The position numbers and the translations under genes were made by a program. A DNA stretch of 64,000 bases from a virus, in IMG/VR virus record IMGVR_UViG_3300010883_007299, positions 32,474 through 96,473 of that record. The stretch is one strand, 5' to 3'. The first letter of the stretch is position 1; every line of letters begins with the position of its first letter. The notes beneath the pieces are model-generated. The model saw only the letters and a list, made by a program, of their open reading frames with translations, had not been told where the DNA came from and searched no databases. Below, in pieces: positions 32,474 through 59,643 of this stretch.

Positions 32474-32491
32474 GATATAATTTTCTCCTCA

Positions 32492-51845: not shown

Positions 51846-54800
51846 TTACCATGCTGTATTACTCTTACCGGCAATAATATCATTAATTGTGTCGTGTGTT
51901 ACTCGGATGTTTTCTCCACCGTAACCACCACCAGGCGATCCTGGATCGTTTGCATTTAAGCCAAGACCAATACCAGAAGCAGGTGCAGGATCTGGTATAT
52001 CAATAGGAAGAACATCTATTGTAGGTGCCATGCTAGACATCAACGCAGGAGTCGGCCAACTAGGAGCTAGTGCTTGTGCTTCAGTAGCTTGTACAGCAGT
52101 ATCAGCAGGATCAGCAAGTGCCGACCAAAGGGCTTCCGGCCCATTCATATGAATCTCAGTTGCAGTTTCAATAATATTGCCACCAGCCAGATTATAAAAA
52201 TCCAAGGTCGACTCCACATAATGGCTGATGGCAGCGTGACTATATACATTTGATGTAACAGATTGGAGATATAAACTTGTCTGAGATTTTACATGAATGC
52301 TTTTCGATGCTGCTTGAAGGAATATATTTTCATCAAGAGATTTTACATTTATATCTGTCTTAGCTTCTATATTTATAACTGTATCCAACGCTTTAATATC
52401 TACTCTTTCCTTTCCGGTAATCATTACATCATCATTAGCATAAGCAATAATATCATCTGTAGCATACATCATTATATCATCAGCAGCAAACATTTGAATA
52501 TCATCTGATAGTGCGGATATCCTAACTTGAGCAGCATCAGCAATAATTTTAATATCTCCGGTAAGTGCTTCTGCCTTAATTTCTCCAGCCGAAGCATATA
52601 TAGAAACATCTCCACCAATACTCAAATCTTCAACATTCATCATAGAAGTTCTAGCATTCCACATAACTGAATACTCGTTTATAGAACCTTGAGCTGTTGT
52701 ATAATTATCACCGTAAGTAAATTCGTGAATATCAGTTCCTGCTGTTAAGTAAATACTATCGGTTAAAGCCTTTATAGTGATTTCACTAATATCAGCTTGT
52801 ATCTTAATATTTTCTATAGCTTGTACTTGTATATGTCCAGTCTTTAAATTGAAATTGGATAATTCTTTACAGGGTCTTGTTCCTGCATGATATTTTGCTG
52901 ACGCTGGATCTAATGCAGTACCCAAGATATTCATATGACCATCATACTGCATATTAATATCACCAGAAGCCTTCATATTAATATTGCGTTTTGATGATAG
53001 GTCTAAATCACCACCTGAATGAATCTGTATCTTCCACTTTGCGGATATGTCCATTCTATCATTGGCTCGGATCCATACCTCATCATCGAAAGTCCAAGCA
53101 ACTTTGCCTTTAACATAAAGATAATCGTCAAAGATTCTAATGTTATAATTATCACCCTTTACATAATCAACCTTTGTACCTTGATGATCTACTTCATAAT
53201 AAGTTCCCGATCTATGGTACTCATGTATTCTTTCTGCACCAGGCGTATCATCAAATTCTTTAATGTGTCCTGACTCTGATTCATATACATGGTTAAATGG
53301 ATATTGTGAAGCCCAACGACTCGTTGGTTGATTCCAAAATCTAAAATTAATACCAGTATTCATTTCTGGATTGCCGATATTGATTTGACGTTCTCTGGTT
53401 TCTGCCTTTGCCCTAACCATCCAATGTGGATTAATTGATATAATACCACCACCAAGATATGCAGAATATTCAGCAGTATATTCTTTTTTCAATTCTACAG
53501 CATCTACAATAGAAGGTGTAGTAGATTCTGGACCTGAATATTCTATACTGCCCGGACCTGACCAAGGAATGCCGTCCATAGTTCCTAAGGTAATAGTGAA
53601 ACCAGAACCAGAACTAGATACATCCATTATTCGATATACACGTCCATTATATTCTTCTGAACCTCTACAACCGGATATCATTATCACATCACCCTTTTGT
53701 ACTTTAGGTTTAGTGTTTTTATTTTTATTTTCTTTTGCAGTAGCAAATGTAGTTGTACTATCTCCCCACAAACTAGACCTTGTAACAACCTTACTATCTG
53801 TAATACTCTTAATAGGAATGCCACCTTCAGCAAGTCTATTTGTATCTGATTCTGGTAATACTACCAAATCTGTTTCCTTTACATCTGCAAATTTAATATC
53901 TTTTCTAGTATCAGGTCCTTTTGGATCACTAACATTATAAATTCCTGTTCCATAATGACCATCATCAAATAATTCTTTTACTTCTTGTCTCTGTGTTGTT
54001 GCTAACTTACCCTTCTGTACATAAGGTGTTCTTGGATGTGTTAATCTAAATTCTTCTCCATCTAAACAGAAATATCCAATCTCTTGACCAGACTCTTGAC
54101 CCCATGATGCTCTGTTATCTAATGGGTCTATACCAGCAAGGCCTGCCGAGTCTGTACTAGATGTTGGTGTGTCTCTTGTGATTGGCCATGTAGGTGCATG
54201 AGTACCACCAGGCGAACCTGCTTCTTTATCAGCACGCCAATGGCCATCTTCTAAATAACCTGTTGATAGATTAACTCCTAAATGAGCTCTATATCCATAA
54301 GTTTGCACATCAGGCCATGCAAATGTTCCGAAATGAGTCCAATCACATTGCCTTAAATCAGCTGTAACCCTTCTCGTTGTACGATAAAGGTAATGTAAAA
54401 TATCCGAATGTGTTAATCTAGCAAACTTTGGTGCATAACCTTTAAGTTCTGGAAGCACCATCCATTTCTCATCATCACATTCATCTAAATCATTAGGTGC
54501 TAGACCTGCTGGTTTATAATTAGGTACTCGTTGTGTCTTTTCATATTTGTCATCAGGGAAATCTTCCGGTATCATATCGTGTTTAGATTTCGTTACACCG
54601 CAAGCAGCACCCGGACTGTTTACATAGTAAGACTGTGGTGTTTCAATAGAACTCTCATGCAATTCTGGATAATGTTCTCCAGGCCCGGCAGAATAATCAC
54701 CAAACTTCTGACTGTGACCTATTGTTACATCACTAGGAGGATAAGGAATGTTTCTTTGGTCTATAGTGGGATCCTGAAACCCATGTTCATAATCCAAATA

Positions 54801-55211
54801 ATCTTCAGAAGCATCTGGAATTTCTGATGAATATTCCTTTGTATACTTCTGCAGCATACCTCTTTGTTTTGCCCACTTTCTATTTAATTTACCAGCAAAT
54901 GATGTTCTTGTATTATTACCGGGCAGAGTGCCCATAATAATCCATTCTTGTAAAGTATCTTCTTTTGCAAAACCTACAACCCAAGTACCTTCTACTAGGT
55001 TTGTGGGTGAATCTCCAACACCAGCCATAGCACCTGCACTTACAGGTTGCATAACTTGAGACCAAGGTAAATCTTTAGTTAGAATCTTTTGTTTGTCGTC
55101 ATCATGTAAACCCAACCATCTTACTCGCACACGACCCAACTTCTCAGGATCAAATCTATCCTCGACAACACCAATGCCCCATTGAAAACCATCTTGTCCT
55201 AAAAATGCCAT
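51846..55211 (-). CDS. gp5: Baseplate hub/central spike
   Basis: OB-fold N-terminus GVVEDRFDPEKLGRVRVR...LPW, then YPFNHVYESESGH..EFDDTPGAERIH..HRSGT and a long beta-helix. Confidence 0.93.
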   Translation of the reverse strand: MAFLGQDGFQWGIGVVEDRFDPEKLGRVRVRWLGLHDDDKQKILTKDLPWSQVMQPVSAGAMAGVGDSPTNLVEGTWVVGFAKEDTLQEWIIMGTLPGNNTRTSFAGKLNRKWAKQRGMLQKYTKEYSSEIPDASEDYLDYEHGFQDPTIDQRNIPYPPSDVTIGHSQKFGDYSAGPGEHYPELHESSIETPQSYYVNSPGAACGVTKSKHDMIPEDFPDDKYEKTQRVPNYKPAGLAPNDLDECDDEKWMVLPELKGYAPKFARLTHSDILHYLYRTTRRVTADLRQCDWTHFGTFAWPDVQTYGYRAHLGVNLSTGYLEDGHWRADKEAGSPGGTHAPTWPITRDTPTSSTDSAGLAGIDPLDNRASWGQESGQEIGYFCLDGEEFRLTHPRTPYVQKGKLATTQRQEVKELFDDGHYGTGIYNVSDPKGPDTRKDIKFADVKETDLVVLPESDTNRLAEGGIPIKSITDSKVVTRSSLWGDSTTTFATAKENKNKNTKPKVQKGDVIMISGCRGSEEYNGRVYRIMDVSSSGSGFTITLGTMDGIPWSGPGSIEYSGPESTTPSIVDAVELKKEYTAEYSAYLGGGIISINPHWMVRAKAETRERQINIGNPEMNTGINFRFWNQPTSRWASQYPFNHVYESESGHIKEFDDTPGAERIHEYHRSGTYYEVDHQGTKVDYVKGDNYNIRIFDDYLYVKGKVAWTFDDEVWIRANDRMDISAKWKIQIHSGGDLDLSSKRNINMKASGDINMQYDGHMNILGTALDPASAKYHAGTRPCKELSNFNLKTGHIQVQAIENIKIQADISEITIKALTDSIYLTAGTDIHEFTYGDNYTTAQGSINEYSVMWNARTSMMNVEDLSIGGDVSIYASAGEIKAEALTGDIKIIADAAQVRISALSDDIQMFAADDIMMYATDDIIAYANDDVMITGKERVDIKALDTVINIEAKTDINVKSLDENIFLQAASKSIHVKSQTSLYLQSVTSNVYSHAAISHYVESTLDFYNLAGGNIIETATEIHMNGPEALWSALADPADTAVQATEAQALAPSWPTPALMSSMAPTIDVLPIDIPDPAPASGIGLGLNANDPGSPGGGYGGENIRVTHDTINDIIAGKSNTAW

Positions 55212-55232: not shown

Positions 55233-55240
55233 TATTTATA
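55233..55240 (-). promoter_or_regulatory. T4-type late promoter TATAAATA
   Basis: Exact consensus upstream of gp5. Confidence 0.72.
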
Positions 55241-55268: not shown

Positions 55269-55357
55269 TGGCTCCGGAGGCTCGGATCGAACGAGCACGG
55301 TATCGAAATACCACCTAGTAAACGGCTAGGCGTGTCTACCACTTCCACCACTCCGGA
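55269..55357 (-). tRNA. Atypical type-II (long variable arm) tRNA, anticodon GUU (Asn), CCA encoded
   Basis: TCCGGAG TG GTG GAAGTGGTAGA CAC G CCTAG CCGTTTA CTAGG T GGTAT TTCG ATACC GT GCTCG TTCGATC CGAGC CTCCGGA G CCA. All stems are fully paired; the amino-acid identity is uncertain. Confidence 0.9.
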
Positions 55358-55363
55358 ATTCTT

Positions 55364-56215
55364 TTACATAGACTGGATAACTCGTCTAACATCGTAATCA
55401 TTCATTGCAGAAAGTAGTCTGGTGATTCCAATTCCACCACCCACTCTTGGAAAGAAATCAAGTGATAGAAACTTATCTAGTTCCTTGTCAACTCTTTCTT
55501 TACCGAATAGGCCATACAACAGGTCAGCATACATACCATCAGATATTTCATGGAACATTCTAGACATCTCATCTGTATCAGAGGACCTTTCAGCTGAACC
55601 GATAGTCTCTTGACCTGAAATGATAACATCTATCTTGGCCGCTGTACCGTCGCCATTCTGTTTCATGTTCCAAAAAGGACTTGTGTAATTTGGAAAGTTC
55701 TTAATCATACAAACTCTACCTTGCCAACTCTTACACATTGCATCTTCATGTTTATGTTCTAGTTCTTCTACTTTAAAATAATCACACCATTCTAAATAAT
55801 CTTTATCTACAATACCATGTCCGTTACCGAATCCCATATGTTCGCATAACTCTCTTTCCATCTTTTCTAAATCGTGAACGTCACCTGGCATCTCAAATTC
55901 AAACATAGGAAAGATAATATCATGTCTACCCTCCGTAATGTTTTTCTCTTCCCGGTAGGATGTGGAGATACAAAAAAACCCGGGAATTTCCGGGTTATTT
56001 AATAATTCGTATTCGAGCCACATTTGGCCGGTTTGTGGAAGAGGCCATACTTCACCTGCATAATTATATGTTGCCACTGTAGTGGGATCTTCACAGGCTG
56101 CTAATATTGATAATCTGTTTTGTGTGTGTACTTCTTGAAAGCTACGGGCCAAAAAAAAGTCACGCAATAACGTGACCGCCTCTGTATACTTTCTTGGGTT
56201 AATTAATTGTGTCAT
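55364..56215 (-). CDS. Class IIb aminoacyl-tRNA synthetase catalytic-core paralog (AsnRS/AspRS-like, no anticodon-binding domain)
   Basis: Motif 1 (LRDFF...FQEV), LPQTGQMWLE, motif 2 STSYREE...RH...F.MFEFE, ETIGSAER and motif 3 PRVGGGIGITRL. Only 283 aa and lacks the N-terminal OB fold. Confidence 0.88.
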   Translation of the reverse strand: MTQLINPRKYTEAVTLLRDFFLARSFQEVHTQNRLSILAACEDPTTVATYNYAGEVWPLPQTGQMWLEYELLNNPEIPGFFCISTSYREEKNITEGRHDIIFPMFEFEMPGDVHDLEKMERELCEHMGFGNGHGIVDKDYLEWCDYFKVEELEHKHEDAMCKSWQGRVCMIKNFPNYTSPFWNMKQNGDGTAAKIDVIISGQETIGSAERSSDTDEMSRMFHEISDGMYADLLYGLFGKERVDKELDKFLSLDFFPRVGGGIGITRLLSAMNDYDVRRVIQSM

Positions 56216-56239
56216 AAAGTGTTTTCTCCAAATTTATAT

Positions 56240-56247
56240 TATTTATA
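56240..56247 (-). promoter_or_regulatory. T4-type late promoter TATAAATA
   Basis: Exact consensus between a terminator and the aaRS-like gene. Confidence 0.72.
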
Positions 56248-56252
56248 CAAAT

Positions 56253-56279
56253 AAAAAACCCCACCAGTGAGGTGGGGTT
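56253..56279 (-). terminator. Rho-independent terminator
   Basis: Minus strand AACCCCACC-TCACT-GGTGGGGTT followed by a T run. Confidence 0.88.
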
Positions 56280-56445: not shown

Positions 56446-56673
56446 TCACGCTTTTTCATCTTTTTTCTCCAGAGGTTTAACTTTGGGGCCTTTAAAAACA
56501 TAACCCTTTCCTTCATTGCCTTCTGCAACAAATTTTTCCAGTTTACTTAAACTACAAAGTTTAGCAACATAAACATTTCTAGCAGTAACATCCTTAATCT
56601 TCTTTTTATCAAGATTCTCCAATCTCATTCTTTGAGATTCCAGTTTCGCTTTTATTTCGTCCTGTACTAACAT
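56446..56673 (-). CDS. Hypothetical protein
   Basis: 75 aa, coupled to the upstream gene (TAATG). Confidence 0.6.
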   Translation of the reverse strand: MLVQDEIKAKLESQRMRLENLDKKKIKDVTARNVYVAKLCSLSKLEKFVAEGNEGKGYVFKGPKVKPLEKKDEKA

Positions 56674-56882
56674 TATCCCTTATACTTCTCCACTTGTAAA
56701 ATCATACTTATACTTTTCTCTAAAGTATTCAAAGCATTCTTTATATGGTCATACTCCGTAACTTCAATCTGTTTAATATGTTTACGTTGACCCAACACTT
56801 CCACACAATCTTCTTTTAACTGTCTAGCTTTGTCTAGTAGGTCTTGTAACTGTTCATCTTGGTGCATAAAAAAAGTCCTCAA
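56673..56882 (-). CDS. Hypothetical protein
   Basis: Downstream of an early promoter; likely starts at MHQDEQ after a GAGG SD. Confidence 0.6.
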   Translation of the reverse strand: MRTFFMHQDEQLQDLLDKARQLKEDCVEVLGQRKHIKQIEVTEYDHIKNALNTLEKSISMILQVEKYKG

Positions 56883-56903: not shown

Positions 56904-56932
56904 AGCTTAACACAAATTTAATAATTTGTCAA
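56904..56932 (-). promoter_or_regulatory. Sigma70-type early promoter
   Basis: TTGACA-17 nt-TAAGCT with extended -10 TG. Confidence 0.8.
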
Positions 56933-58179
56933 GCATTTCCCCACTGAACTTCTACTTTGCGTTTACCTTCAAACATTTCGCCCAACAAATATGTAGGTTT
57001 GAGTTTGTATAACTGTGCTAAAGAAATGACAGCATTTTTAGAATCCACTCTCCACTCTGATCCATCTACAGTAACCATCATAAATAAAAACTTACTAAAA
57101 TCATCAGTATGGCAGGCTACTATAAACTCTTGTGAAGGCATCTTACTACTACCAGGAGCTGAATAGATTTTGGTATTGCCAGCAGAACTATTAAACTCAC
57201 AAGCCTTTATTTCAAGTTGTGTATCAAAATATCTATCCTTGCTACCTTTTAATTTCTTGTTAGCCAAATCTGTTAAGAATTGAAATAAAATATCAGCATA
57301 AGTTTTATTTGATATTGCCCCAGCAGAAGCACACTGTAATTTCTTATCACCAGTGTTATTAAACCCCAAAGCGAAAGCCGACATTGTGGAATGAGATAAA
57401 AAGTTCGTTCTTGTGTTTCGTTCCCAACCAAGAACAGAATCACGAATAATGCCACCATGTACTGCCTCTATTTTTCGCACCATTGAAACAGATGTCTTAA
57501 TGGCAAATGGAACAATATCAGGATACTTTTTCAAGTCATCATAAAAGGTGTGTCTATTAGGATCAACAATCTCTTTTGGTGCCTGTATCGTAACCAACTT
57601 ATATGCTTTTCTAACAGTTATCTTATCTGCAACAATATCATCTACCAAGTCGGGTCGTTCTTCACCAATCACCACAAGTTTCTTAAAAATATCCTTATCA
57701 ATACGAGCATCGGTGGCAAAGTTGTTTCTGTCCTTATTAGAAAGTTCTTTGCCGTACTTATCAAAGTAAGCTTCAGATTCTTTAGTCCAGAGTCGTAATG
57801 CTGTCCTATAATTGGATTCGTTTCTTTTGCCGTCTTGATTAAATGATTTTAGGAATTGTATTTCTTCATATCTGTCGGCTTTAGGATCATAAGTACGTTC
57901 AGCACAATATACTGCTCTTACCTTTAGAAAGCCCAACAACTTAGCAACCCATACTCTAAAATTTCCGGAGTAAATAACACCAGTTTTGGGACAAACGGTA
58001 ATAGGTGTATGGTTTGCATCTCCATATTTGTCAAACCAGGCCTGCATCTTCGTTTTCAATAACTCAATATCATCCCCATGATTTGCTCTAGGATAGATTT
58101 CTTCGTTTAGGGGATGGAAGGTTAGATTAGCAACGATTGCATAACCATCTTCATCAATAAATTTCACTTTCTGTGTCAT
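56929..58179 (-). CDS. ParB/Srx-like N-terminal domain protein
   Basis: L.FHPLNEEIY...PITV...VIYSGNFRV.VAK.LG ParB-N-like motif. The C-terminal half is unassigned. Confidence 0.6.
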   Translation of the reverse strand: MTQKVKFIDEDGYAIVANLTFHPLNEEIYPRANHGDDIELLKTKMQAWFDKYGDANHTPITVCPKTGVIYSGNFRVWVAKLLGFLKVRAVYCAERTYDPKADRYEEIQFLKSFNQDGKRNESNYRTALRLWTKESEAYFDKYGKELSNKDRNNFATDARIDKDIFKKLVVIGEERPDLVDDIVADKITVRKAYKLVTIQAPKEIVDPNRHTFYDDLKKYPDIVPFAIKTSVSMVRKIEAVHGGIIRDSVLGWERNTRTNFLSHSTMSAFALGFNNTGDKKLQCASAGAISNKTYADILFQFLTDLANKKLKGSKDRYFDTQLEIKACEFNSSAGNTKIYSAPGSSKMPSQEFIVACHTDDFSKFLFMMVTVDGSEWRVDSKNAVISLAQLYKLKPTYLLGEMFEGKRKVEVQWGNA

Positions 58180-58350
58180 AATAATATTCCTTTAAAAAAA
58201 TTAAGGGGTAGGGTAGATGTGTTCTCTTTAATCAGGACTGCGACATAACCTGGAATCAAAGTTTTAACAGAGCCCTTCGGGGGAGCATCTCCAAGCTTCA
58301 GGTTGAGTCCCCAGGTTAACCCCAGGGACATACCCCTTCGCTTCCAATAA

Positions 58351-59604
58351 TCAGAAGCCATCTTCCTCCTCTTGGTCATCGTCACCGACTTCCTCAGAGG
58401 CCGTCAAGGATTCTATGTCAGCGCCTGCATCTATCTTGGTGTACAGGTCAAGGAAAGAATCCTTCGTTTCGGCATCAAACCGATTCACAGTCAGCTCAAT
58501 CGCTTTCATTTTGTTATCAAAGATAGCAAAGGCATTTACGATATGCACAAGGCGACGAGTTGAAATGATTTCATCACAACCACCTTCTTCAAAGGTCTTG
58601 CGGATTACACCAGCCCACTTAACAAGATTGGTACCGAACTCGGAATCTTCCTTGCCATGTTTTGAAAATTCGTTGGTAAGAATTTTCTCTTCCATTTTAG
58701 CAGTCGGGTACTCCTGTTCGATGGTGACAGGAAAACGTTCCAAGAAAGCTTCGTTCAGCACGTTGGTGCCAATGAAGCGTCCATCTTCGGAACCCTGACC
58801 CTTGGTGTTAGCAGTAGCGATAACATTAAAGCCCGGTGTTGGGTGTACCCATTTGCCAATCTTCTTAATGTAGATTGACGAACCTTCCAAGACAGGCTGC
58901 AAGGCCATAATCTTATTTGAGGCAAGGTCGATCTCATCAAGGAGAAGAATCGCACCACGTTTCATGGCGGTCACAACAGGACCATCATGCCAGACGGTCT
59001 CACCATTCAGCAAACGAAAGCCACCAATCAGGTCGTCCTCGTCAGTTTCAATGGTAATGTTGGCACGGACATATTCTCGCTTTTGCCGAGCACACAATTC
59101 CTTGACCATCAAGGTTTTACCGTTACCAGACAATCCGGTGATAAACATCGGATAGAAAATTCTAGACTTAATAACATCCTTCACGGTGTTAAAATTACCG
59201 TAAGGAACATATCCCAAGAATTTTTCAGGCACATAACTGTCTTGGTTATCCATTACACCGATAGCACTGGGTGCCATCATCACGGCGGCAGTCGCCGAAG
59301 CGTTTGAGACAGTTGCCGGCACGTTTGTGACAGTCGCCGAAGCGTTTGAGACAGTTGCCGGCACGTTTGTGACAGTCGCCACGCCATTGTACATACCATT
59401 ATTGTCGGGCAAGTGGTACAAACCTCGCTCAATCTTCAAAGCATCCTTATTGACCAACCAAGTCGGCCAAGAATGTACTCTTGGTTCCACATCCACGATG
59501 GATTGCAGTTCCCGACGAGTAACGGTAACCCGGTCTTTACCGAATTCCTCTCTGACCGCTTTAACCAGAGCAACCCGTTTCTCGTTCATTTTCACATCTG
59601 ACAT
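58351..59604 (-). CDS. cobS: MoxR-type AAA+ ATPase (phage CobS-like)
   Basis: FITGLSGNGKT Walker A, ETDEDDLIGG, LLLDEID Walker B, TANTKG and ISTRRLVHI. Start moved to 59604 (AGGAG SD). Confidence 0.9.
   Translation of the reverse strand: MSDVKMNEKRVALVKAVREEFGKDRVTVTRRELQSIVDVEPRVHSWPTWLVNKDALKIERGLYHLPDNNGMYNGVATVTNVPATVSNASATVTNVPATVSNASATAAVMMAPSAIGVMDNQDSYVPEKFLGYVPYGNFNTVKDVIKSRIFYPMFITGLSGNGKTLMVKELCARQKREYVRANITIETDEDDLIGGFRLLNGETVWHDGPVVTAMKRGAILLLDEIDLASNKIMALQPVLEGSSIYIKKIGKWVHPTPGFNVIATANTKGQGSEDGRFIGTNVLNEAFLERFPVTIEQEYPTAKMEEKILTNEFSKHGKEDSEFGTNLVKWAGVIRKTFEEGGCDEIISTRRLVHIVNAFAIFDNKMKAIELTVNRFDAETKDSFLDLYTKIDAGADIESLTASEEVGDDDQEEEDGF
59289..59380. repeat. In-frame perfect 42-bp tandem repeat (2 copies plus part), built of 21-bp subunits
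   Basis: cagtcgccgaagcgtttgagacagttgccggcacgtttgtga occurs twice and encodes ATVTNVPATVSNAS in the AAA linker. Confidence 0.92.
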
Positions 59605-59643
59605 ATTATAAGTCTCCTGACTTTTTATCACTTTCCAAACAAT

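Follow-up and report, generated by a model that had tools for sequence, protein, structure and literature searches.

Not every class II synthetase core belongs to an ordinary aminoacyl-tRNA synthetase. AsnA and the archaeal asparaginyl-tRNA synthetase (AsnRS)-like asparagine synthetase AS-AR ('AsnRS2'; P. abyssi 3P8T) consist of a subclass IIb core alone, of about 290-330 residues, that forms an adenylate and works without tRNA. AS-AR occurs alongside an AsnRS that uses its product. EpmA/PoxA, the EF-P lysine ligase, also lacks an anticodon-binding domain, and its class IIb core aminoacylates a mimic of the tRNA acceptor arm. Three further systems, PylRS without its N-terminal domain with tRNA-Pyl, SepRS with tRNA-Cys and ProRSx with tRNA-ProX, combine an anticodon-blind class II core of about 275 residues with an adjacent, unusual tRNA. 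Finally, aminoacyl-tRNA serves as a metabolic intermediate in the glutamyl-tRNA reductase path, which leads from Glu-tRNA to tetrapyrroles, and in the transamidosome of non-discriminating AspRS (ND-AspRS) and GatCAB. The locus described here can be set beside all of these. It lies in a 64,000-nucleotide stretch (hereafter the window; positions 32,474 to 96,473 of IMG/VR record IMGVR_UViG_3300010883_007299) and consists of a gene for a 283-residue class IIb synthetase core followed by a gene for an atypical tRNA with anticodon GUU. The record, 96 kb long and about 53% complete, comes from an uncultured marine T4-like phage.

Two observations shape the argument. The enzyme gene and the tRNA gene stay together in marine phages, and relatives of the enzyme that lack the tRNA are in places joined to enzymes of pyrimidine synthesis. 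Perhaps, then, the enzyme activates asparagine for something other than translation.

A class IIb core close to AsnRS

The core protein scores above the gathering threshold of Pfam family PF00152 (tRNA-synt_2, the class IIb enzymes for D, K and N), with an E-value of 6e-14. From residue 12 onward it aligns to positions 27-302 of the PF00152 catalytic domain. The open reading frame (55364-56215, minus strand, ending in TAA) cannot be extended N-terminally because a terminator and a promoter lie directly upstream. There is no room for an N-terminal OB-fold anticodon-binding domain and nothing suitable precedes the core, which bears out a preliminary description, made from the letters of this DNA and its open reading frames, that had recognized a 283-residue class IIb core lacking that domain. 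The protein is a member of the class II synthetase superfamily and a catalytic domain of subclass IIb.

Which class IIb enzyme does it most resemble? All NCBIfam matches (AsnRS, AspRS, AS-AR, LysRS and EpmA) fall far under their cut-offs. The asnS model TIGR00457 gives 32.1 bits against a cut-off of 342.6, and only over residues 150-231. The AS-AR models NF005055 and NF005053 give 22.8 and 16.5 bits (cut-offs 389 or 322), the EpmA/GenX models TIGR00462 and NF006828 give 12.8 and 15.3 bits (cut-offs 287 and 264), and PRK06462 matches with an E-value of 4e-5. In PHROGs the protein falls into phrog_29758 (E 1e-120), a family annotated as function unknown. In searches with a profile of 49 diverse family members, AsnRS (E 2.5e-14) and archaeal/eukaryal AspRS (2.4e-12) came ahead of AS-AR (2e-7) and EpmA (2e-5), and the match to the AS-AR structure 3P8T (E 2e-7) covered only positions 59-215. 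In Foldseek searches with an AlphaFold2 model of the core (pLDDT 93), the catalytic domains of AsnRS and archaeal/eukaryal AspRS came top with equal strength (E ~1e-18), and the match to AsnRS, AspRS and LysRS had a probability of 1.0.

The residues that matter most for catalysis by such an enzyme are in place. Motifs 2 and 3, which define the antiparallel-sheet class II fold, are intact, and across 143 relatives both motif 2 (TSYR.E...GRH..FPMFEFE) and motif 3 (GGGIG.TR) are invariant. So are a LAACEDP loop and the segments PLPQTGQMWLE, TSPFWNMK and KIDVI..G.ETIGSAERS. We take the pocket signature PQTGQMWLE to be of the AsnRS type, with Leu-Glu in QMWLE where AspRS has the Lys-Gln that binds Asp. 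The Asn side chain is presumably held by Glu106 and the Arg of GSAERS.

The nearest comparison is therefore the AsnRS catalytic domain itself (P. horikoshii 1X54, Brugia 2XGT/2XTI, human 8TC8), which has the same fold (Foldseek E ~1e-18, TM 0.70-0.75) and shares motifs 2 and 3 and the Leu-Glu pocket signature with the core. Even the motif-2 loop is of about the same length in the Brugia enzyme, with a single one-residue gap in the HMMER alignment. However, the core has no OB domain, is only about 20% identical and reaches 32 bits where the AsnRS model asks for 343. AS-AR shares the core-only plan but is less similar (E 2e-7, against 2.5e-14 for the AsnRS/AspRS comparison). Furthermore, AS-AR is paired with an AsnRS, whereas the carriers of the core and their hosts mostly have none, and unlike the core family it has neither a linked tRNA nor fusions to pyrimidine enzymes. 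Similarity to EpmA is very weak (profile E 2e-5; 15 bits against 264); its pocket is of the LysRS type and it has no tRNA partner.

A chimeric tRNA with a relaxed anticodon loop

The second part of the locus is an 89-nt tRNA gene (55269-55357, minus strand) that starts 6 nt past the TAA stop of the core gene. ARAGORN calls it at 55357-55269 as tRNA-Asn(GTT), in agreement with the atypical GUU tRNA first noticed there, and a covariance model built for this tRNA, R1, gives it 85.6 bits. General models do not see it. The Rfam tRNA model RF00005 gives no match at E<=10 for the window tRNA, and its best match in the Rfam clan is tRNA-Sec, with 18 bits against a threshold of 47. Its anticodon loop is CCGUUUA (C33, U37), its D stem has 3 bp, its variable region is a 5-bp stem with a UUCG loop, and G73 and CCA are encoded.

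Is it a tRNA at all? Position counts and covariation were taken from 49 distinct homologous tRNAs. In these, 99.9% of the cells pair and 18 of the 20 pairs show double (compensatory) changes, whereas controls with the register slid pair at 43-54%. The cloverleaf is thus far beyond chance. The invariant columns include T8, A14, A15, G18, G19, A21 and the T loop.

The acceptor stem and discriminator (TCCGGAG...CTCCGGA-G) are identical to those of a Saccharibacteria tRNA-Asn. The D arm and the long variable arm, on the other hand, match tRNA-Leu when aligned with Patescibacteria tRNA-Asn and tRNA-Leu, and tRNA-Leu is the next best match of R1 in every genome searched. From its sequence, then, the molecule looks like a chimera, with the acceptor stem and anticodon of tRNA-Asn on a tRNA-Leu-like body.

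What is fixed in this tRNA and what is not? The acceptor end and the anticodon hardly vary: U1:A72 is found in 48 of the 49 copies, G73, G34 and U35 in all of them and U36 in 48. The rest of the anticodon loop does vary. Position 33 is U in 32 copies, A in nine, C in seven and G in one, and position 37 is U in 43, G in three and A in three. CCA is encoded in 31. The variable region ranges from 5 to 38 nt, three lineages having a short type-I loop, and because of this range the long variable arm is not an identity mark. One proposal had been that the enzyme reads its tRNA through the acceptor stem and the variable arm. The invariant U1:A72 and G73 fit the first half of it, the acceptor end, but an arm of 5-38 nt does not fit the second. 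One copy departs at the anticodon: the cassette tRNA at L007 3368-3463 (IMG/VR) has GUC (Asp) and G37, which may stem from a sequencing error or be a change that is tolerated.

Asn/Asp identity has been assigned to the anticodon and G73, bacterial GatCAB needs U1-A72, and t6A37 blocks aspartylation in yeast (PMC9976931, PMC2811023). As far as can be read from sequence, the fixed positions of the cassette tRNA are exactly these published marks of AsnRS/AspRS (anticodon, G73) and bacterial GatCAB (U1-A72). In other words, the bacterial tRNA-Asn identity set (G34-U35-U36, G73, U1:A72) is complete. Conversely, U33 and a purine at 37 in a 7-nt loop, the hallmarks of a decoding elongator tRNA, are not kept, and loop positions usually fixed by ribosomal decoding are free or unusual.

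This sets the tRNA apart from those of the systems introduced above. The PylRS, SepRS and ProRSx pairs resemble the cassette in having a dedicated neighbouring tRNA, but their enzymes are of subclass IIc and not IIb, and their tRNAs decode on the ribosome and keep the U33 and purine 37 that the cassette tRNA does not. We know of no metabolic fusions of those pairs. The marks of the ND-AspRS/GatCAB system (GUU, G73; U1-A72) are kept by the phage tRNA. However, both the Glu-tRNA and the transamidosome paths use an ordinary decoding tRNA, whereas the cassette has a separate one with relaxed decoding features beside the enzyme gene. Unlike an ordinary AsnRS, the core has relatives that are fused to pyrimidine enzymes and a partner tRNA that is chimeric with a non-canonical anticodon loop.

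The enzyme and the tRNA form a cassette

The linkage was followed in 80 IMG/VR loci plus the window. A total of 64 parse as gene plus tRNA, and the spacer is at most 12 nt in 63 of these 64. Counted over a total of 85 related loci, the tRNA begins no more than 12 nt past the stop in 63. In L058-L060 the tRNA lies about 160 nt downstream of the core gene, seven loci are cut by contig ends, and about nine distinct loci of the viral clade truly lack the tRNA with the enzyme intact. The neighbours vary widely, with 33 upstream and 22 downstream gene clusters. Because the linkage is kept while the neighbours change, the enzyme and tRNA behave as a two-part cassette. There are 598 confirmed stretches with this cassette in IMG/VR.

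The cassette is also present in cultured phages. P-SSM2, P-SSM5 and P-SSM7, the only T4-like isolates that have it, carry the gene, annotated as 'tRNA ligase', with the tRNA 6-9 nt downstream. In the complete genomes of P-SSM2 and P-SSM7, R1 finds the cassette tRNA only beside the enzyme gene. The linkage thus holds in the isolates and in most IMG/VR relatives, as had been predicted for homologues if the two genes belong together. As P-SSM2, P-SSM5 and P-SSM7 are growable model cyanophages, every hypothesis considered below can be tested directly. In the literature searched, the cassette was found described only as a table entry, 'tRNA ligase, T4-GC 194' (PMC3037559).

Two observations on individual loci may be added. 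For P-SSM2 (L001, AY939844.2), GenBank puts tRNA-Asn PSSM2_199 at 164094..164179, inside CDS PSSM2_205. These coordinates are stale, because ARAGORN and R1 both place the tRNA directly after PSSM2_198 (L001 3813-3900; 162083-162168 of the record). In two of the loci with the distant tRNA, a viral contig has a tmRNA-like gene with the tag AVNEDFALAA (L059 493-875, L060 492-874) and a cluster of tRNAs (Ala, Glu, Asp) just upstream of the core gene.

Relatives without the tRNA

The family is far larger than the cassette. Clustered at 50%, 657 representatives match the core protein, and the whole family amounts to thousands of metagenome proteins. In GTDB species genomes a scan yielded 266 relatives, most of them in Patescibacteria, at 56-64% identity and on large contigs. 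Members with an identical active site in Patescibacteria, megaphages and giant-virus-like contigs have no linked tRNA. For two distant homologues, P0182 and P0246, no IMG/VR loci were found. The preliminary description had tied the enzyme to its tRNA. For the family as a whole this does not hold, since cellular and viral members with the same active-site residues, at 50-64% identity, have no linked tRNA. In five Patescibacteria carriers the special tRNA was not found anywhere in the genome, the best R1 matches being tRNA-Leu and a normal tRNA-Asn, and the megaphages LR756501 and LR756508 have the core homologue and only ordinary tRNAs.

In an unrooted maximum-likelihood tree the two kinds of member separate. 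A Patescibacteria clade of 61 rows (support 99) has no tRNA in any row, and a marine viral clade of 75 rows (support 96) has it in 59. Rooting with class IIb synthetases of the candidate phyla radiation (CPR) gave branches that were too long, and no direction of transfer is claimed. In Patescibacteria the gene is sporadic (2 of 121 sampled genomes), and its CPR neighbourhoods contain Dus, ClpP, DnaX, trigger factor and NUDIX genes and no pyr genes. Several members (L122, L126, L168 and L121; Patescibacteria metagenome-assembled genomes) are labelled 'transposase' at NCBI, a mis-annotation, and other members are labelled 'amino acid--tRNA ligase-related protein'.

A link with pyrimidine synthesis

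A clue to the function of the family comes from gene fusions. The core is fused to PyrD (dihydroorotate dehydrogenase) in at least nine clusters (P0125, P0305-P0311, P0315), and across 95% of the length of the window protein these share 50-56% identity with it. A further protein (P0150) is a fusion of the core to PyrF (orotidine monophosphate decarboxylase). The catalytic motifs are kept in all fusions but the truncated P0315, although less exactly in P0150.

Gene order points the same way. In L344 (6692-10040; Ga0169931_10004077), a uridine monophosphate (UMP) synthase gene (a PyrE-PyrF fusion), PyrD and a 352-residue core lie together. In L290 (6413-9604; Ga0209597_1003299), PyrD, the core, a rhodopsin and thymidine kinase stand in a row. 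Overall, about 15 of 85 metagenome loci have PyrD, PyrE or PyrF at a distance of at most 8 kb, as do three loci from bacterial metagenome-assembled genomes; none of those 85 has the tRNA. In a set of 50,697 phage records, PyrE occurs in three isolates only, P-SSM2, P-SSM5 and P-SSM7, the same three that carry the cassette. These fusions and clusters, as far as sequences go, point to a metabolic role in pyrimidine synthesis, which the preliminary description had not considered.

The L344 cluster is divergent and adjoins an NrfD-like gene. L290 has TBP-like and RFC-like genes nearby and looks like a giant-virus contig with a partial pyrimidine module. Many PyrD frames in Patescibacteria (G018, G046, G095, G117, G035, G062, G074, G113) are of 527-616 residues, and one is of 1229; they are therefore fused to something else.

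Hosts that make Asn on tRNA

The hosts of the isolates are relevant to any role that involves asparagine. No AsnRS was found in three complete Prochlorococcus genomes and marine Synechococcus RCC307, and GatB is present in all four of these picocyanobacterial genomes. Therefore, these hosts make Asn-tRNA by the indirect route, which makes either a direct AsnRS or the use of Asn-tRNA as a metabolite attractive for a phage. Among CPR carriers of the core, AsnRS scores above the cut-off in 3 of 55, against 16 of 121 in the background, an anti-correlation that is not significant.

What might the enzyme and the tRNA do?

What if the family activates asparagine and makes a pyrimidine precursor from it? 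Among relatives that share the active site there are fusions to PyrD or PyrF as well as PyrEF-PyrD-core clusters, and for this reason the primary chemistry of the family is probably not ordinary tRNA charging. The same fusions and clusters make dihydroorotate, or an immediate pyrimidine precursor derived from Asn, the most likely product. From the anatomy of the locus, the conservation and covariation, the fusions and clusters and the AsnRS and GatB content of the hosts, we infer a substrate, a product and a direction for the tRNA step. The reading that we prefer, while granting that it has somewhat less than an even chance of being right, is that of a pyrimidine-linked enzyme that forms Asn-adenylate, and whose partner tRNA is either loaded by the host and hands over its Asn or is charged by the enzyme.

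In this scenario the enzyme would be an AsnRS derivative that forms adenylates and has lost its anticodon-binding domain, and the tRNA-Asn-like RNA would be dedicated to it and work through the acceptor end. Asn and ATP would first give enzyme-bound Asn-AMP. Capture of CO2 would then yield an N-carboxyanhydride, and attack by the side-chain amide on this anhydride would produce dihydroorotate. The route from Asn-AMP and CO2 to dihydroorotate is suggested by analogy with known adenylate chemistry, and it would make carbamoyl-phosphate synthetase, aspartate carbamoyltransferase and dihydroorotase unnecessary. As for the tRNA, it seems to have kept the marks for host ND-AspRS (GUU, G73) and GatCAB (U1:A72) and to have lost those for ribosomal decoding (U33, purine 37). 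Because of this pattern, and because known hosts make Asn only on tRNA, the tRNA may be host-loaded and deliver its Asn to form Asn-AMP by a reversed transfer step. Alternatively, the enzyme might charge the tRNA itself. The most specific version is that the family is a 'dihydroorotate synthetase' (Asn + CO2 + ATP to dihydroorotate via Asn-AMP) that replaces the first three pyrimidine enzymes, with marine T4-like phages using a dedicated, non-decoding, host-loaded carrier tRNA. This version is more doubtful than the general one.

Several observations weigh against a pyrimidine role. The literature searched gave no enzymatic precedent for the proposed dihydroorotate chemistry and no account of an AsnRS-like enzyme that takes part in pyrimidine synthesis. 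The phage enzymes retain their ATP-binding motifs in full, which, judging from sequence, would fit plain aminoacylation equally well. Bacterial GatCAB reads the D loop and may refuse the large, Leu-like one of this tRNA. The co-occurrence with PyrE comes from no more than two independent phage lineages. None of the tRNA-linked loci has a pyr gene within 2.5 kb, neither PyrD nor PyrE was found in the 96-kb record of the window (itself only about half complete), and just one of 20 larger partial contigs with the core gene has PyrE. In CPR there is no association of the core with PyrD (14 of 50 carriers against 40 of 121 in the background) or with PyrE, which is above the cut-off in only two of the 50 carriers.

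If the pyrimidine link is real, it would be a new route of nucleotide synthesis in phages, giant-virus-like elements and some bacteria, and a new metabolic use of aminoacyl-tRNA. If the carrier idea also holds, this would be the second natural aminoacyl-tRNA to feed central metabolism after the Glu-tRNA of haem synthesis, and one with a private tRNA.

The strongest rival is that enzyme and tRNA are a private AsnRS/tRNA pair for translation. In this case the core would read U1:A72, G73 and CCA, and the Asn-charged tRNA would decode AAC/AAU late in infection. The pair would offer a one-step route to Asn-tRNA in hosts limited to AspRS and GatCAB, and its odd anticodon loop would help it to evade host anticodon nucleases or modification enzymes. 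Much of the evidence above would be expected: the tight, conserved adjacency and co-transcription, the full set of class II motifs with a motif-2 loop of full length and a pocket like that of AsnRS, a fold nearest to the AsnRS/AspRS catalytic domains and ahead of AsnA, AS-AR and EpmA, the anticodon GUU in 48 of 49 copies and the absence of AsnRS from the hosts. Core-only synthetases with special tRNAs also have a precedent in PylRS without its N-terminal domain. However, U33 is replaced in 17 of 49 copies and U37 stands in 43, which is very unusual for a decoding tRNA, and one copy has GUC. Enzymes with an identical active site do without a linked tRNA and occur as PyrD or PyrF fusions, in several members of the viral clade the enzyme is intact although the tRNA has been lost, and the co-occurrence with PyrE is left unexplained. 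We therefore regard a private pair as possible but doubtful. Were it true, it would be a very small natural anticodon-blind pair, of interest for genetic-code engineering, and would show how phages complement hosts without AsnRS.

Alternatively, the two parts may be independent: a tRNA-independent metabolic enzyme, for pyrimidines or something else, beside an odd phage tRNA-Asn that the host charges and that is used in translation. The two genes would then be adjacent because they move together in a tRNA hot-spot and are both expressed late, and not because of a physical partnership. Indeed, in cyanophages tRNA genes are markers of mobile regions without synteny (PMC3037559), the tRNA retains every identity mark for host ND-AspRS and GatCAB, and the enzyme family functions elsewhere without a tRNA. 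What makes independence unlikely is that the same odd tRNA lies 4-12 nt past the same gene in about 60 loci with differing neighbours. In addition, R1 finds it in P-SSM2 and P-SSM7 only beside the enzyme, and R1 gives no match of the cassette kind in loci of other clades.

Could the enzyme simply be an AS-AR- or AsnA-like asparagine synthetase that makes free Asn from Asp, NH3 and ATP for an AT-rich phage with an Asn-rich proteome? The preliminary description named this plain, tRNA-independent enzyme as the outcome that would count against its proposal. Its attraction is that such enzymes are the nearest core-only class IIb paralogs (3P8T, E 2e-7; PRK06462, E 4e-5) and that the tRNA shares the Asn theme. 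However, free Asn cannot be used in translation without an AsnRS, which none of the four picocyanobacteria and only 3 of 55 CPR carriers have. As the hosts use the indirect route, a plain asparagine synthetase would be pointless for translation. The family also scores higher with AsnRS and AspRS than with AS-AR, is far under every NCBIfam cut-off and has PyrD and PyrF fusions that this idea does not explain. It is very improbable.

Least credible of all is that the core places an amino acid on one of the bases of the GUUU loop and not on the 3' end. The model would be GluQRS (YadB), a synthetase core that has no anticodon-binding domain and acts on position 34 of GUN tRNAs. G34-U35-U36-U37 is strongly conserved, but GluQRS is a class I enzyme that needs queuosine, bacterial tRNA-guanine transglycosylase needs U33-G34-U35 whereas U33 is lost in one third of copies, the invariant U1:A72 and G73 indicate the acceptor end, and the pyrimidine fusions are left unexplained.

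Whether the enzyme serves pyrimidine synthesis or a private pair, a function could be given to thousands of database entries whose present names are 'tRNA ligase', 'amino acid--tRNA ligase-related protein' or, in some cases, 'transposase'.

Transcription signals and surroundings in the window

The preliminary description had placed the two genes in a late transcription unit of their own. Terminator, promoter box, core gene and nearby tRNA are all present, on the minus strand. An intrinsic-terminator-like hairpin, ACCTCACTGGTGGGGT, with a T run (56258-56273, minus) closes the upstream unit. It is followed by a T4-type late-promoter box, TATAAATA (56240-56247, minus), 25 nt before the ATG, with a GGAG Shine-Dalgarno motif after the box. 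A second TATAAATA (55233-55240, minus) marks the 3' limit of the cassette and serves a gp5-like baseplate hub gene directly after it (51846-55211, minus). No terminator was found 3' of the window tRNA, where the next late promoter and gp5 adjoin, so the unit is the cassette's own at its 5' end only.

The count of the TATAAATA motif is not significant in itself, because 11 occurrences in the window compare with 10.6 expected. Its position does recur, a late-promoter box preceding the core gene in most loci. Of 66 distinct relatives, 31 have the exact box ahead of the gene, in most of these about 30 nt before the start, and a CTAAATA variant occupies the same place in several more. Many relatives have similar hairpins ahead of the core gene.

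Upstream of the cassette the window has two small open reading frames (56446-56882) and, at 56929-59631 on the minus strand, a 416-residue open reading frame and a 426-residue AAA-type ATPase that looks CobS-like by eye. None of these upstream frames recurs beside the cassette in other phages. psbA was not found in the window phage, whose gp5 shares only about 35% identity with that of KVP40-type phages.

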